Virus genome (UHGV): UHGV-0199318
Direction: 5' to 3' (one strand)
Origin: a virus
Length of the DNA: 37,852 bases
A program made the position numbers and the translations under genes. The notes under the pieces were generated by a model. The model was not told where the DNA came from. It ran no database searches and was given only the letters and a program-made list of their open reading frames with translations. Below, in pieces: positions 11,248 to 15,938 of this stretch (the stretch's first letter is position 1; each line of letters starts with the position of its first letter).

Positions 11248-12642
11248 CTAAATAAAATCAACACCTTTAATCGTATTGTCTTCGTTTAGATAAATTTCCT
11301 GGATTGTAGATCTCCAAAAAGAACGTCTATTTTCCAAAGACAGCGTATCATACATTTGCCGAAAGTCAGTTTCTAATAGTTCTTCCACATAGTGCAGGCT
11401 TCTCGTCTCTTCCTCCTCTGGAAAAGCGGCAGAAGCGGAATGTTCTTCTTCCAATCTCTGGTACTCCTTATCGTAGTAATCGTAAGAAATCCTCCCTTTT
11501 TGAAATAACAAATTTAATCGTTCCATTTCTTTTCTCAGTTTTTCCGGATCTTTCGTTTTCTTTTGCTTTTTTAGCTCTTCGCTGATCTGGTTGCTGCGTA
11601 CTTTATACTTTTCGTATTCTCTTTCGAGATTTTCGAGCAAATATTTTTCGACAAGGTTCTGGCTCACCCTATGCCTATACGTGCAAATATGATCGATAAG
11701 TGCTCTATTGCAACGGTAGTAGCAGTACGTTCTTTTTTCCCGTGTTTCACGGTTTATAATGGACGAGCATCCTGTACCGACTAATTTCTGTCCGCATACA
11801 GGGCAACGAATCAAACCCGTAAATAGGTATACTCTGCCAGATGGTGTGCTTTTTATATTTCTTTTCGAGATAGTTTGCATCTCATTCCATTCTTTTTCTG
11901 ACAGGTAGGCGGGGCAATAAGGATACCCTCTGTATGTCCCTTTATAAAATTCGCTGGATAACATCGTCCGTAACATGCCATAGCTAAAATCAATTCCATA
12001 GGTTTCCTGCATGTACCGGATAGCGCCCTTCTTGGAGTTATGATTTCTAAAATATTCAAAAAAATCTTCCACCATGTGCTCTGTTTCCGAATCTTTAACC
12101 ATGCATTTCTTTCCATCTACAACACCTGTTTTATAACCAAAAGGCATATTTGCATCTCCAAATATTAGCTTTTTCTGTCTTATAGATGCTTCATTCACAA
12201 ATTTAATTCGCTCGGATGTGGTGTCTACTTCGTTTTGACCGATCGACAGCACTACATTTAACTGCAATCGTCCATCTCTTGTCTCCATGTTTATACCGGG
12301 CTCTGATACGGAAATCCAGCGAACACCATGATCATCAAGCACATCTTGCACCTTATAAAAATCAGAAAGATTTCGAAACCATCTGTCGAGTCTCCAGAAA
12401 ATTATCACATCAATTTTATCCCTTTTTACGTCCTCTACAAGAGCGTGTATGGCTTTTCTTTTCTTCAATTCTTTTCTGGCAGTCTTTCCCTCGTCCGCAT
12501 AGACGCCTACTATAGACATATTGTTGTCTGTTGCGTATTGCTCCAGGCATTCTTTCTGTGCTTGCAGAGACTTGCCATGCACGCTCTGCTCAAATGTGGA
12601 GACGCGGATATATATGGCACACCGCAGTATTTTTTCTGGCAT
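11248..12642 (-). CDS. Large serine recombinase (phage integrase of the resolvase/invertase superfamily)
   Basis: N-terminal resolvase catalytic domain (AIYIRVSTFEQ....SL.AQ with nucleophile Ser; D..DVIIFWRLDRWFRN), followed by a recombinase domain, a Cys-rich zinc ribbon (C..C....C...C) and a coiled coil. 464 aa from the ATG at 12642, which has an AAGGAGAG RBS. Confidence 0.9.
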   Translation of the reverse strand: MPEKILRCAIYIRVSTFEQSVHGKSLQAQKECLEQYATDNNMSIVGVYADEGKTARKELKKRKAIHALVEDVKRDKIDVIIFWRLDRWFRNLSDFYKVQDVLDDHGVRWISVSEPGINMETRDGRLQLNVVLSIGQNEVDTTSERIKFVNEASIRQKKLIFGDANMPFGYKTGVVDGKKCMVKDSETEHMVEDFFEYFRNHNSKKGAIRYMQETYGIDFSYGMLRTMLSSEFYKGTYRGYPYCPAYLSEKEWNEMQTISKRNIKSTPSGRVYLFTGLIRCPVCGQKLVGTGCSSIINRETREKRTYCYYRCNRALIDHICTYRHRVSQNLVEKYLLENLEREYEKYKVRSNQISEELKKQKKTKDPEKLRKEMERLNLLFQKGRISYDYYDKEYQRLEEEHSASAAFPEEEETRSLHYVEELLETDFRQMYDTLSLENRRSFWRSTIQEIYLNEDNTIKGVDFI

Positions 12643-12819
12643 TTGCATCACTCTCCTTTTGTAAAATATATTTAAAATTTGTACAAAAATAACAGCCAGC
12701 GTACGAACTGATGTTCCGCTTGCGTGACTGCCCCGAAGATGATACAATATTCGTGGATTTCAATCGCATATCTTCGGATATGTATACCGTCTCTGTTGGC
12801 GCAGGGGCGGTTTTTTATT

Positions 12820-13350
12820 TTATTGTACGGCGATTTTTTGAGTGTCTTTTTTGTTGTCAAACGATATCATATCAGATGCTTCAATCGTGAGTTCTGTGTC
12901 ACTCTTTAATTTATACACCTGACACACTTCAACGGTTCCACCTGGCTGTACTTCGTTCAAGGCGTAGTTGTTCATAGAGTCGTTCTGTTCAGTCATGATT
13001 CCTATTTCACACTCACTGCCATCTTGGAAACACTGCACGTTTGCTGTAATTCCAGCTGTTGCATTTTCATCAGAATTGTTCGTGAAAGTGTAGTAGTAAA
13101 GCAAACATTTATTTCCTTCATAATCGTTTGCAAATTCATGTCTTACATATTTTACATTAAATTTTTCTGTTGTAAAATCTATAATTCCATCGTCTGCTGG
13201 CTGCGCATCCTCTGTCTTTGTTTCGTTCTGATCTGTCGCAGTTTCCGTATTTGTCTTGTTGTCTTTTCCAGAGTCCGTATTCCCACCACATGCTGTAACG
13301 GACAACACAATAGCTCCAGTTAATAACATAGCTACAATTTTCTTTTTCAT
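12820..13350 (-). CDS. Phage-encoded lipoprotein of unknown function (moron; superinfection-exclusion candidate)
   Basis: MKKKIVAMLLTGAIVLSVTAC has a lipobox (VTAC) and a type II signal peptide, then a Thr/Asp/Asn-rich linker and a beta-rich domain. Own RBS (gaggaaaagagga). Located between int and the repressor, the classic lysogenic-conversion slot. Confidence 0.7.
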   Translation of the reverse strand: MKKKIVAMLLTGAIVLSVTACGGNTDSGKDNKTNTETATDQNETKTEDAQPADDGIIDFTTEKFNVKYVRHEFANDYEGNKCLLYYYTFTNNSDENATAGITANVQCFQDGSECEIGIMTEQNDSMNNYALNEVQPGGTVEVCQVYKLKSDTELTIEASDMISFDNKKDTQKIAVQ

Positions 13351-13476
13351 GTTTTTCCTCTTTTCCTCTGTACTTTTCCACAATTTATATATAAACGCCG
13401 AAGCGGTTATACCATATTAAATTAAAATCTTCCATCAATCCTTATAAAATATAAGAACAAATGTTCGAATAAAATG

Positions 13477-13505
13477 TTGATTTTTGTTCCCTGAGATAGT
13501 ATTAT
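13477..13505 (+). promoter_or_regulatory. Sigma-70-type promoter (TTGATT-17-TATTAT) with an overlapping operator-like inverted repeat
   Basis: -35 at 13477-13482, -10 at 13500-13505, spacer exactly 17 nt. ccctga(N15)tcaggg dyad spans the -10. Confidence 0.45.
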
Positions 13506-13552
13506 ATGTTCAGGGATTTCGAACATGTGTTTTGCAGTTAGGGGGATCGCGA

Positions 13553-13651
13553 ATGGACTACAAAAAACTTATCATTGAATTGGTTAACAAGTCCAACAAC
13601 ATTGAGATGTTGGAACTTGTATACCGATTCTGCAAAAAACTTTTAGACTAG
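13553..13651 (+). CDS. 32-aa micro-ORF (MDYKKLIIELVNKSNNIEMLELVYRFCKKLLD) convergent with the repressor gene
   Basis: AGGGGGA RBS 6 nt upstream of the ATG. Preceded by a consensus-like promoter and ending inside the bidirectional terminator. Predicted amphipathic helix, no known homology. Confidence 0.3.
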   Translation: MDYKKLIIELVNKSNNIEMLELVYRFCKKLLD

Positions 13652-13671
13652 GGAAAACCCTAGTCTTTTTT
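13645..13671. terminator. Perfect bidirectional rho-independent terminator shared by the micro-ORF and the repressor gene
   Basis: agactaggg-aaaa-ccctagtct (9-bp perfect stem) flanked by A-run / T-run. Each stem half contains the gac-tag stop of one of the convergent ORFs. Confidence 0.7.
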
Positions 13672-14040
13672 AATTAAGCTCTCTGCGAGCTTTTCTAGAA
13701 CATCCCATTCACTTTCATCCAGCTTTGAAAGAGCTTCTACTAATCTCTTTTTAAATGTATCGTTTTCCATTATAAGATCGGCAGCGAAGTCCGTGATCAA
13801 CTGGTCTCTTGTCAACGGGATAAACATTTCACCGTTTCCGGTTCTTAACCATTCTTCGTTTACATTGAATTTTTCGCACATCAACCTATAAATCGGTTCC
13901 TGTTTCTCTGGATTTTTCAAACGGTTATTTTCAATATTATTTATAACGTCTCTTTTTACTCCAAGAGCTTCACCGAATTCGGTCTGTGTCATATGTAATT
14001 GTTCAGTCCGGAGGAGTTTTATTCGCTCGAACATTTCCAT
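13660..14040 (-). CDS. CI-like HTH (XRE family) repressor; non-cleavable, lacking an S24 peptidase domain
   Basis: N-terminal HTH (LRTEQLHMTQTEFGEALGVKRDVINNIENNR). 127 aa from the ATG at 14040 with AAGGAGGTGA RBS. Divergently oriented to the early operon. No LexA-like C-terminal domain. Confidence 0.85.
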   Translation of the reverse strand: MEMFERIKLLRTEQLHMTQTEFGEALGVKRDVINNIENNRLKNPEKQEPIYRLMCEKFNVNEEWLRTGNGEMFIPLTRDQLITDFAADLIMENDTFKKRLVEALSKLDESEWDVLEKLAESLIKKD

Positions 14041-14063
14041 TCTATCACCTCCTTGCAAAGTAC

Positions 14064-14092
14064 ATTATATCATAACTGCATGAGTTTATCAA
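14064..14092 (-). promoter_or_regulatory. PRM-like promoter for the repressor (TTGATA-17-TATAAT on the minus strand)
   Basis: Minus-strand -10 TATAAT = plus 14064-14069. -35 TTGATA = plus 14087-14092, embedded in operator O1. Spacer 17 nt. Confidence 0.5.
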
Positions 14093-14096
14093 CTCA
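14081..14096. promoter_or_regulatory. Operator O1: 16-bp palindrome tgagtttatcaactca
   Basis: Half-sites TGAGTT/AACTCA. Overlaps the -35 of the PRM-like promoter. Confidence 0.55.
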
Positions 14097-14125
14097 AAAA
14101 ACGAATAAATTTTTAAAAAATAGGG

Positions 14126-14154
14126 TTGACAAGCTCTAAAAACGGATGTATTAT
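14126..14154 (+). promoter_or_regulatory. PR-like early promoter (TTGACA-17-TATTAT)
   Basis: -35 at 14126-14131, -10 at 14149-14154, 17-nt spacer. Points into the rightward early operon. Confidence 0.65.
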
Positions 14155-14169
14155 GAGTTTACAAACTCA
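14154..14169. promoter_or_regulatory. Operator O2: 16-bp palindrome tgagtttacaaactca
   Basis: Same half-sites as O1 (14 of 16 identical). Begins at the last base of the PR -10 and covers the predicted transcription start. Confidence 0.55.
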
Positions 14170-14200
14170 AACAACACAAACAAAAACTGAAAGTGAGGAA

Positions 14201-15185: not shown

Positions 15186-15938
15186 TTGAACGAGTTAATC
15201 AAAATCAATTACGAAACAGAACAGCCGACAGTCTCGGCAAAAGATTTACACGAACAACTAAATATCGAAACACCATTTAAAAAATGGATTGATCGCATGT
15301 GTGATTACGGTTTTGAAGAGTCGAAAGACTTTTGGACAAAAATGTCTAAAAGTACAGGAGGTCGCCCATCAAAGGAATACAACCTTTCAGTTGATATGGC
15401 AAAGCAGATCTGTATGATTCAAAGATCACCAGAAGGAAAGCAGATTCGCCAGTATTTCCTTGATCTCGAAAAAGCATGGAATACACCAGAACAGGTAATG
15501 GCCAGAGCCTTAAAGATGGCAGGCAAGACCATTGACAGCCTGAAAGACAGATGCAAATTCCTTGGAGGGCAGGTTGTAGAACAACAGAAATTGATCGAGG
15601 AAATGACGCCGAAAGCGAACTATGTTGACCATATTCTGGAATCAAAATCACTGGTAGCCACTACGCAGATCGCCAAGGACTATGGAATGTCAGCTGTGAG
15701 ACTTAACCGGATTCTGAATGACATGAAAATTCAATACAAAGTCAATAAACAGTGGGTGCTCTACTCAAAATATCAGAATTGCGGCTATGTGCATAGTAAA
15801 ACAATCGATATTACAAGGAGCAACGGAGATCCGGATGTAACAATGCAGACGCAGTGGACACAGAAAGGGCGCTTGTTTTTATACGAGGAGCTTAAGAAAA
15901 ACGGCATCTATCCAGTAATTGAGCTGAACGCAGCATAA
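15186..15938 (+). CDS. ant: Phage antirepressor (AntA N-domain plus KilA-C/ANT C-domain)
   Basis: N-terminus TVSAKDLHEQLNIETPFKKWIDRM...GFEE..DF is AntA-like. C-terminus QIAKDYGMSAVRLNRILNDMKI...QWVLYSKYQNCGYV is KilA-C-like. TTG start with AGGAGGT RBS. Confidence 0.85.
   Translation: MNELIKINYETEQPTVSAKDLHEQLNIETPFKKWIDRMCDYGFEESKDFWTKMSKSTGGRPSKEYNLSVDMAKQICMIQRSPEGKQIRQYFLDLEKAWNTPEQVMARALKMAGKTIDSLKDRCKFLGGQVVEQQKLIEEMTPKANYVDHILESKSLVATTQIAKDYGMSAVRLNRILNDMKIQYKVNKQWVLYSKYQNCGYVHSKTIDITRSNGDPDVTMQTQWTQKGRLFLYEELKKNGIYPVIELNAA

Follow-up and report, generated by a model that had tools for sequence, protein, structure and literature searches.

The viral genome sequence UHGV-0199318 (37,852 nucleotides (nt); hereafter the window, by which we mean the whole stretch analysed) carries, between the gene for a DUF5067 lipoprotein and that for an XRE/CI-type repressor, a compact transcription unit built around an open reading frame (ORF) of 32 codons. 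We propose that this unit is probably a LexA-repressed gene for a two-helix antirepressor of 32 amino acids (aa) that targets the phage's own CI-like repressor. Judged from sequence conservation, it is highly probable that the micro-ORF is under LexA control and codes for a protein; by analogy with characterized systems, it is likely that the peptide acts as an antirepressor on the repressor's C-terminal domain. A first-pass annotation, made from the letters of the sequence, had described the unit as self-contained, lying within the lysogeny module and convergent with the repressor gene, a description that we uphold in each respect.

The 37.9-kilobase window is related, as a mosaic, to the temperate siphophages that infect Ruminococcus (Mediterraneibacter) gnavus, namely phiRgIBDN1, phiRg507T2_2/3, phiRgPS_6, phiRM10, phiRg519T2 and RG-TP1, which cover ~30% of it at 88-93% identity. 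The unit and its convergent partner consist of the following elements:

13454-13467 (core 13455-13466): LexA (Cheo-type SOS) box 1, AGAACAAATGTTCG, core GAACAAATGTTC; one mismatch to CGAACN4GTTCG
13477-13482 (-35) and 13500-13505 (-10), plus strand: sigma-70-type promoter TTGATT-17-TATTAT; 9 of 12 consensus positions, conserved in relatives
13488-13494 and 13510-13516: dyad TCCCTGA-N15-TCAGGGA enclosing the -10; perfect inverted repeat of 7 base pairs (bp)
13520-13533 (core 13521-13532): LexA box 2, CGAACATGTGTTTT, core GAACATGTGTTT; about +9 to +22 of the transcript
13540-13546, plus strand: Shine-Dalgarno sequence AGGGGGA, 6 nt before the ATG; kept up to the ATG across heteroimmune relatives
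13553-13651 including stop, plus strand: micro-ORF, 32 aa, MDYKKLIIELVNKSNNIEMLELVYRFCKKLLD; proposed small antirepressor
13645-13666 (element to 13672), both strands: bidirectional intrinsic terminator, 9-bp perfect stem and 4-nt loop
13660-14040, minus strand: XRE/CI-type repressor, 126 aa; Pfam matches HTH_3 and HTH_19

LexA-type boxes flank the promoter of the micro-ORF

The strongest inverted repeat of the region, formed by AACAAATGTTCGAA (13456-13469) and TTCGAACATGTGTT (13518-13531), had been overlooked in the first-pass annotation. Its arms contain GAACAAATGTTC and GAACATGTGTTT, two LexA-type boxes that flank the core promoter: box 1 ends 10 nt upstream of the -35, and box 2 follows the predicted transcription start near 13512. 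Both boxes are exact matches to the clostridial LexA operator, GAACnnnnGTTC or GAACnnnnGTTT (GAAC-N4-GTTC/T), which has been described at C. difficile lexA, recA, ruvC and uvrB and is also documented for C. acetobutylicum and C. perfringens (PMC4234289). A Cheo-type box at or near the promoter, the hallmark of a LexA-regulon gene, is found here twice. Among the 18 variants of the R. gnavus promoter class, box 1 is identical throughout, and the half-sites of box 2, GAAC and GTTT, are present in every variant, with only the N4 spacer varying (ATGT or AAGT). The gene upstream of the unit is a different one in RG-TP1, and there the homology to the window begins at box 1; this relative, which has the same promoter and a peptide of the same family, was obtained by mitomycin C treatment (PMC13435783).

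The association between box and peptide extends beyond this promoter class. Across the peptide family we distinguished 11 unrelated promoter classes, seven of which have a perfect box within 110 nt (background 0.0156 per 110 nt; binomial P = 7e-11), and in several of them the box fills the spacer of a consensus promoter (TTGACAtgcaaGAACAGATGTTCTATAAT in the L034 group of loci, TTGACAatcGAACAAATGTTTGAtaatat in L046 and L047, and TTGACAatcGAACATATGTTTGAtataat in L049). An eighth class (L032) has AGAACAGATGTTCT directly after TGATATAAT, 310 nt upstream, and the L030 class has a box with one mismatch, GAACATACATTC. These boxes are common to phages whose repressors have DNA-binding domains of at least five kinds, which means that the phage repressor does not use them as operators. 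We had also considered binding of a phage repressor to TTCGAA at the micro-ORF promoter, because the operators of phiRgIBDN1 contain this motif, and dropped the idea because heteroimmune phages share the promoter while unrelated promoters keep GAAC-N4-GTTY and not TTCGAA. By the conservation of their half-sites, the conserved control elements of the unit are the two LexA boxes rather than the dyad around the -10.

The promoter itself lies where the first-pass annotation placed it, but "near-consensus" was too strong a term: nine of 12 positions agree, and matches of this quality are as frequent in the window (13) as expected from shuffled sequence (13.8). On conservation, the ORF, ribosome-binding site and terminator do exceed chance, and both ORF and promoter are kept in relatives, as had been asked of a functional unit.

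The micro-ORF encodes a conserved peptide

The ribosome-binding site (AGGGGGA, 6 nt 5' of the ATG) and the 32-aa ORF proved to be as first described, as did the perfect bidirectional terminator holding the GAC-TAG ends of both convergent genes. The terminator hairpin is AGACTAGGG-AAAA-CCCTAGTCT, with U-runs on both strands, and is scored as a terminator in both directions; the GAC-TAG of the micro-ORF (13646-13651) lies in its left arm and that of the repressor gene (complement of 13660-13665) in its right arm. At this place every peptide/repressor type has a hairpin of its own.

Homologue searches with a frame extended upstream to 55 aa recovered close relatives only. Pattern scans built on an alignment of five peptide types (an alignment of seven types being too diverse), run over viral, genome and metagenome sequences and combined with a hidden Markov model search, defined a family with the pattern MDYKK.IIEL...L..IY.F, comprising 178 copies in 111 fetched loci. 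Its members are 25-39 aa long, mostly 32-38, and where the genome scan names an organism it is mostly one of the Lachnospiraceae (Blautia, Acetatifactor, Eubacterium, Ruminococcus sp.). Among 1.84 billion representative proteins the family forms 24 clusters at 50% identity, all of short proteins. The peptide belongs to no Pfam, NCBIfam or PHROG family, with sporadic weak matches only, and against PDB sequences it finds only designed helical repeats (E 0.03 or worse).

Several comparisons indicate that selection acts on the encoded peptide. In phiRgIBDN1, RG-TP1 and phiRg507T2_2 the promoter, leader and Shine-Dalgarno sequence are >90% identical to the window as far as the ATG; 3' of the ATG the DNA is unrelated, yet it holds a 33-36-codon ORF of the same pattern, a hairpin and a different convergent XRE repressor gene. 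Between the window and locus L018, 23 of the 96 nt of the ORF differ, with a nonsynonymous rate (dN) of 0.088 and a saturated synonymous rate (dS), and variable sites are distributed 16/8/24 over the three codon positions. With dN much below dS, the constraint falls on the peptide rather than the RNA, and by this sequence test the micro-ORF is a real protein-coding gene under purifying selection. The product is predicted to be a soluble, amphipathic two-helix hairpin (residues 3-13 and 17-31; predicted local distance difference test (pLDDT) score 87).

Among the six R. gnavus phage records of 2020, five leave the micro-ORF without annotation and the sixth, phiRgPS_6, is without the gene; the RG-TP1 record alone annotates it, as a hypothetical protein. 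The earlier remark that nothing comparable is annotated therefore stands for the gene, which is uncatalogued, but not for its proposed function, as the functionally comparable AimX/AimC and Sar/SroF of Bacillus phages have been described.

Peptide type tracks the repressor's C-terminal domain

We examined co-variation in 45 unique triplets of peptide, repressor helix-turn-helix (HTH) domain and repressor C-terminal domain. In pairs with peptides at least 80% identical, the C-terminal domains were also at least 80% identical in 221 of 231 cases and never fell below 50%, whereas the HTH domains were <50% identical in 58 of the same 231 pairs. No pair combined a peptide identity of <50% with a C-terminal domain identity of at least 80%. 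This co-variation ties the type of peptide to the repressor's C-terminal domain rather than to its DNA-binding domain. Together with the purifying selection on the ORF, it fits the small regulatory protein that had been among the first suggestions for the product.

The combination of window-type peptide and C-terminal domain occurs with three different HTH domains, the link being the conserved sequence EFNVNEEWLRTGNGEMF, and the DNA-binding specificity, on the one hand, and the C-terminal domain with its peptide, on the other, therefore reassort as separate modules. The junction stretch, (C)xxFNVNEEWLRTGNGEMF, corresponds to positions 13825-13878 of the window (repressor residues 55-72) and acts as a recombination point. 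A comparison with locus L009 illustrates the exchange: the peptides are identical at 31 of 32 positions, and the repressors are 97% identical from FNVNEE onward and 49% before it, with different operators. At locus L077 (917-2036; also L080 and L081) two modules of LexA-box promoter and micro-ORF convergent with an XRE repressor follow one another; in the L077 pair the HTH domains share 80% identity, while C-terminal domains (42%) and peptides (58%) have drifted apart in parallel.

The peptide also bears some resemblance to the domain that it tracks. In the predicted structures its helices are 11 and 15 residues long and the last two helices of the repressor 12 and 16, each pair being joined by a 3-residue loop. 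In hhalign comparisons, peptide residues 3-19 (YKKxIIELxxK) aligned with repressor residues 96-112 (FKKRLxxxLxxLxE) with a score of 19.0; 300 column shuffles gave 7.4 +/- 1.8 with a maximum of 15.3, and none reached 19.0. These observations suggest, without proving it, that the peptide resembles the two final helices of the repressor's C-terminal domain.

The partner repressor is of a type that does not cleave itself

The 126-aa repressor is modelled as a five-helix HTH domain (residues 3-67) followed by a three-helix C-terminal domain (78-91, 94-105 and 109-124; AlphaFold2 model, pLDDT 86.6). Its HTH domain resembles the 434 and P22 c2 repressors in fold comparison, and weak full-length fold matches include SinR (1b0n, rank 8), DdrO and the AimC structures 9iaq and 9sf2. 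We found 677 homologues, the named ones from Mediterraneibacter gnavus. Single-copy micro-ORFs are arranged tail-to-tail with a short XRE repressor (113-141 aa) in all but one peptide type, with a gap of -3 to about +70 nt between the two genes. In the window repressor HTH_3 and HTH_19 are the only Pfam matches, with no peptidase domain, and when five partner repressor types (that of the window and four others) were scanned against Pfam, only HTH domains were found and Peptidase_S24 was absent from all. A repressor that is unable to cleave itself needs a separate effector for SOS induction.

Candidate operators of this repressor lie on two divergent promoters:

14092-14064, minus strand: repressor promoter, 11 of 12 consensus positions
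14126-14154, plus strand: lytic promoter TTGACA-17-TATTAT, 11 of 12 consensus positions
14082-14095 and 14155-14168: candidate operators GAGTTTATCAACTC and GAGTTTACAAACTC, on the two divergent promoters

They are the sole two perfect GAGTT-N4-AACTC sites in the window.

The relative phiRgPS_6 (L112, 2783-3648) lacks both the micro-ORF and the LexA-box promoter, and in the same slot it has a Peptidase_M78 gene (ImmA/IrrE-like, E = 5e-16) co-oriented with its XRE repressor. Peptidase_M78 proteins being the other known way to inactivate a repressor that does not cleave itself, this natural replacement supports, by analogy, the assignment of the micro-ORF as a putative antirepressor gene. The same phage has a GAACGAATGTTC box upstream of its tyrosine integrase.

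Comparison with known antirepressor systems

The closest parallel is found in the "extended arbitrium" phages of Bacillus (phi106, phiW23 and BMBtp14), in the pair AimX-AimC (bioRxiv 10.1101/2025.11.23.689978; PDB 9iaq and 9sf2). AimX is a 29-aa protein encoded just downstream of a LexA site, its gene being convergent with and overlapping that of the short XRE repressor AimC; it binds the C-terminal domain of AimC and thereby blocks oligomerization and DNA binding, and a role as antisense RNA was excluded experimentally (bioRxiv 10.1101/2025.11.23.689978). As in the window, phi106-type phages have a very small ORF (29-80 aa) just 3' of a LexA site; it is convergent with the gene for a short XRE repressor (80-140 aa) and adjoins or overlaps the 3' end of that gene. 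The repressor lacks a cleavage domain, it has a helical C-terminal oligomerization domain, and a cro-like gene lies in divergent orientation. In both cases the type of antirepressor follows the type of repressor, and the proposed action is to take the place of the partner's C-terminal domain. The window unit has the whole of this layout, from the small ORF abutting a short non-cleaving XRE repressor gene to the divergent cro-like gene.

There are differences as well. No aimR or aimP lies near the unit, whose upstream neighbours are the DUF5067 lipoprotein and serine integrase genes; we propose that it is controlled by LexA alone, and its hosts are gut Lachnospiraceae (Clostridia), not Bacillus. 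The peptide shows no sequence similarity to any chain of the PDB set, which should include the AimX of 9sf2, and the repressor matches 9iaq and 9sf2 weakly (E 0.1-0.2), by way of its HTH domain. Because there is no aimR/aimP, because the hosts are Clostridia and because there is no sequence relationship to AimX, we place the unit outside the AimX family; by its matching architecture, it probably works as AimX does.

In SinI-SinR of Bacillus subtilis (1b0n), too, an XRE repressor with a small helical C-terminal oligomerization domain is opposed by an antagonist resembling that domain, and the window peptide aligns with the penultimate helix of its repressor's C-terminal domain. That system is a chromosomal biofilm switch and not a phage switch, and the peptide has no Pfam SinI match. 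SinI itself has 57 aa and is under developmental control, not that of LexA.

The window unit would share with Tum of coliphage 186, with Sar/SroF of SPbeta-like phages (bioRxiv 10.1101/2025.11.27.690993) and with the Gifsy antirepressors (PMC3121763) the use of a separate phage protein, made from a promoter with an SOS box, to inactivate a repressor that is not open to RecA-dependent cleavage, and in these systems antirepressor and repressor form specific pairs. Sar of SPbeta (YopT; 72 aa) mimics DNA and targets a repressor of the integrase fold (bioRxiv 10.1101/2025.11.27.690993). All these proteins are larger than the window peptide and unrelated to it in sequence, and none is encoded by a convergent micro-ORF sharing a terminator with the repressor gene. 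Tum, for instance, has ~146 aa. ImmA/ImmR of ICEBs1 and IrrE/DdrO offer an alternative means of inactivating an XRE repressor without a cleavage domain of its own, the one that occupies this slot in phiRgPS_6; they differ in being proteolytic, with an effector of ~140 aa that is co-transcribed with the repressor and has no LexA-box promoter.

The peptide gene, uncatalogued so far, is best filed as a putative new member of an emerging class of LexA-controlled small antirepressors, and the unit is a first candidate of that class in phages of gut Clostridia.

A model for induction

In the lysogen, host LexA would occupy the two SOS boxes flanking the promoter and keep the gene silent, as the motif and its conservation suggest, while the non-self-cleaving 126-aa repressor would hold the GAGTT-N4-AACTC operators, presumably in an oligomeric form held together by its three-helix C-terminal domain. 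DNA damage would activate RecA and lead LexA to cleave itself, allowing synthesis of a short mRNA of ~160 nt that ends at the shared terminator. [quoted passage not shown] LexA binding, damage inducibility, and the interaction of peptide and repressor with its consequence are all inferred, from the sequence features set out above and from these parallels.

Points against the model and alternative explanations

Several observations weigh against this model. Part of the co-variation between peptide and repressor is attributable to linkage, as the peptide gene directly adjoins the repressor gene at its 3' end. The similarity found by hhalign is short (16-17 columns, P 3e-4 to 6e-4, probability 29-38%). 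The LexA consensus that we applied is clostridial and may not be that of R. gnavus itself, and the window boxes flank the -35 and -10 rather than overlapping them, which makes the efficiency of repression uncertain. The window also encodes an AntA/KilAC protein of an "antirepressor" family (15186-15938; listed below). Finally, the tandem arrays of micro-ORF paralogues described in the next section have no XRE repressor and usually no LexA box, and the family may therefore have another or a broader target.

This last point leads to the alternative that deserves most attention, namely that the LexA-controlled peptide acts on some other host or phage target, be it as a modulator of LexA/RecA like gp7 of GIL01, as a recombination directionality factor, or in superinfection or host takeover. 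The LexA boxes and the coding signal would be the same whatever the target, and the arrays lie directly upstream of tyrosine integrases, a frequent place for excisionases, with no XRE repressor nearby. Yet peptides of one type, MDYK[S/N]KIIELING..., accompany a tyrosine integrase in phiRgIBDN1 and a serine integrase in RG-TP1, so an integrase-specific factor is unlikely, and we dropped the excisionase or directionality factor on this ground. A factor directed at the host, moreover, need not diversify with each immunity type, whereas the peptide type tracks, and resembles, the repressor's C-terminal domain. We consider a different target unlikely and prefer the phage's own repressor as the partner.

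A function of the RNA or of transcription as such, whether through an antisense or convergent effect on the repressor gene or as a structured small RNA with an incidental ORF, is a further alternative, of which the first-pass annotation had raised the antisense RNA; it is suggested by the orientation of the unit, by the fact that aimX was at first proposed to be an antisense RNA, and by the folding of the transcript, which is better than that of shuffled sequences (z = -4.65) and includes a long imperfect internal hairpin at 13577-13630. Because a perfect bidirectional terminator separates the genes, however, the two transcripts have only the terminator hairpin in common. Covariation gives the internal hairpin no support (term +0.35, a single compensatory pair), the hairpin is disrupted in the divergent types of peptide, and a search of 13300-14200 against Rfam gave chance matches only; we no longer regard this hairpin as a functional element. 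Substitutions in the ORF are overwhelmingly synonymous, three unrelated nucleotide sequences keep a 32-36-codon ORF at the same ATG, and for AimX the RNA model has been excluded by experiment, as noted above. An RNA function is very improbable in our view.

The first-pass annotation had also read the ccctga/tcaggg dyad as an operator; bound by the phage repressor or another phage regulator, it would leave the GAAC-N4-GTTY sites incidental. The dyad is present as described, and in the window it is a perfect 7-bp inverted repeat enclosing the -10; repeats of this kind, though, occur by chance in ~5% of 60-nt stretches of the window. Among the 18 variants of the R. gnavus-class promoter it is perfect in only three, matches at five of seven positions in 10 and at four or fewer in four, and the changes are one-sided without compensation; in the other promoter classes of the peptide family it was not found. 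Phages with this promoter differ in their operators and have at least five different DNA-binding domains in their repressors, and the candidate operators of the window repressor, GAGTT-N4-AACTC, are unrelated to the dyad. The dyad is probably not an operator, and we rejected it as such for its lack of conservation across promoter variants; that it could be the true control site, with the LexA boxes incidental, strikes us as a most remote prospect.

Least credible of all is an SOS-induced toxin or lysis peptide, on the model of the similarly sized and LexA-controlled TisB and DinQ, or a secreted signal peptide such as AimP or Phr: the product is indeed small, SOS-controlled and phage-borne, but 11 of its 32 residues are charged, its longest apolar run is 3 residues, it has neither a membrane helix nor a signal peptide, its predicted form is a helical hairpin that is amphipathic and soluble, and no gene for an AimR-like or Rap-like receptor adjoins it, all of which speaks against the toxin or signal peptide first suggested.

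Paralogue arrays and other features of the lysogeny region

Besides the single-copy units, we observed loci at which 2-5 different paralogues of the micro-ORF stand in tandem, the array lying 55-57 nt upstream of a tyrosine integrase gene on the same strand (L043, 2889-3214; L045, 3001-3214; L074, 1501-2053; L083-L103). The arrays lie in apparent small integrative elements, and their copy composition varies in a cassette-like manner. The array-bearing genomes that are named belong to Blautia and Ruminococcus sp.; the others are metagenomic, mostly from the human gut. No array has an adjacent XRE repressor, and none has a LexA box within 200 nt except L073.

As a speculation that we hold to be rather improbable, the MDYKK peptides might be diversifying "keys", each derived from and matched to the "lock" of one repressor C-terminal domain, and the arrays a key-ring with which integrative elements could act on several resident heteroimmune prophages simultaneously, to de-repress, sense or hijack them. 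If true, this would be a satellite-like or cross-induction strategy undescribed so far for gut Clostridia.

The remaining features of the lysogeny region of the window are as follows:

11248-12645, minus strand: serine integrase
12820-13350, minus strand: DUF5067 lipoprotein
13553-13651, plus strand: ORF of the micro-ORF unit, between the lipoprotein and repressor genes
14064-14168, both strands: divergent switch region, followed by early genes
15186-15938, plus strand: AntA/KilAC "antirepressor"-family protein, 250 aa, early operon; Pfam ANT E = 3e-35, AntA E = 9e-25

In some relatives an extra plus-strand gene for a Cro/C1-type HTH protein of 65-67 aa (HTH_26, HTH_3) lies between the lipoprotein gene and LexA box 1 (L002, which is RG-TP1, 2607-2804; L010, 589-786; L018, 2599-2802); the window has no such gene.

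A third LexA-type box, CGAACTGATGTTCC, lies at 12704-12717 between the minus-strand integrase and lipoprotein genes. On its 3' side, on the plus strand, follow an extended -10 element TGaTACAAT (12740-12748), a hairpin with a UUCG loop (12766-12783) and an intrinsic terminator (12786-12811, with a U-run to 12821). The block at 12704-12821 is kept in phiRgIBDN1, phiRg507T2_2, phiRgPS_6, L006 and L029, with serine- and tyrosine-type integrases alike; in the box the GAAC and GTTC half-sites are retained and the N4 spacer is variable. It belongs to no Rfam family, and its sequences are too alike for a covariation test. From its arrangement, this block is a candidate for an SOS-controlled small RNA of ~65 nt, divergent from the integrase gene.

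Implications for phages of R. gnavus and other gut Clostridia

[quoted passage not shown] In the papers on these phages that we consulted we found no mention of LexA and no described induction mechanism, and a further search of the literature gave no report for phages of Lachnospiraceae. If our model is right, it provides a concrete route from DNA damage (by antibiotics, or possibly by inflammation-related stress) to lysis, and one that passes through a gene overlooked by annotation pipelines. It would also extend the concept of the tiny antirepressor (AimX, Sar), which is very recent in Bacillus, to Clostridia without arbitrium signalling: a type of switch shown only lately in Bacillus phages and so far undescribed for gut Clostridia.

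The modular design, in which one C-terminal domain and its peptide are recombined with different DNA-binding domains, would separate the specificity of immunity from that of induction, and it predicts which co-resident prophages should cross-induce. In practice, 96 nt, deleted or expressed, could lock or trigger these prophages.

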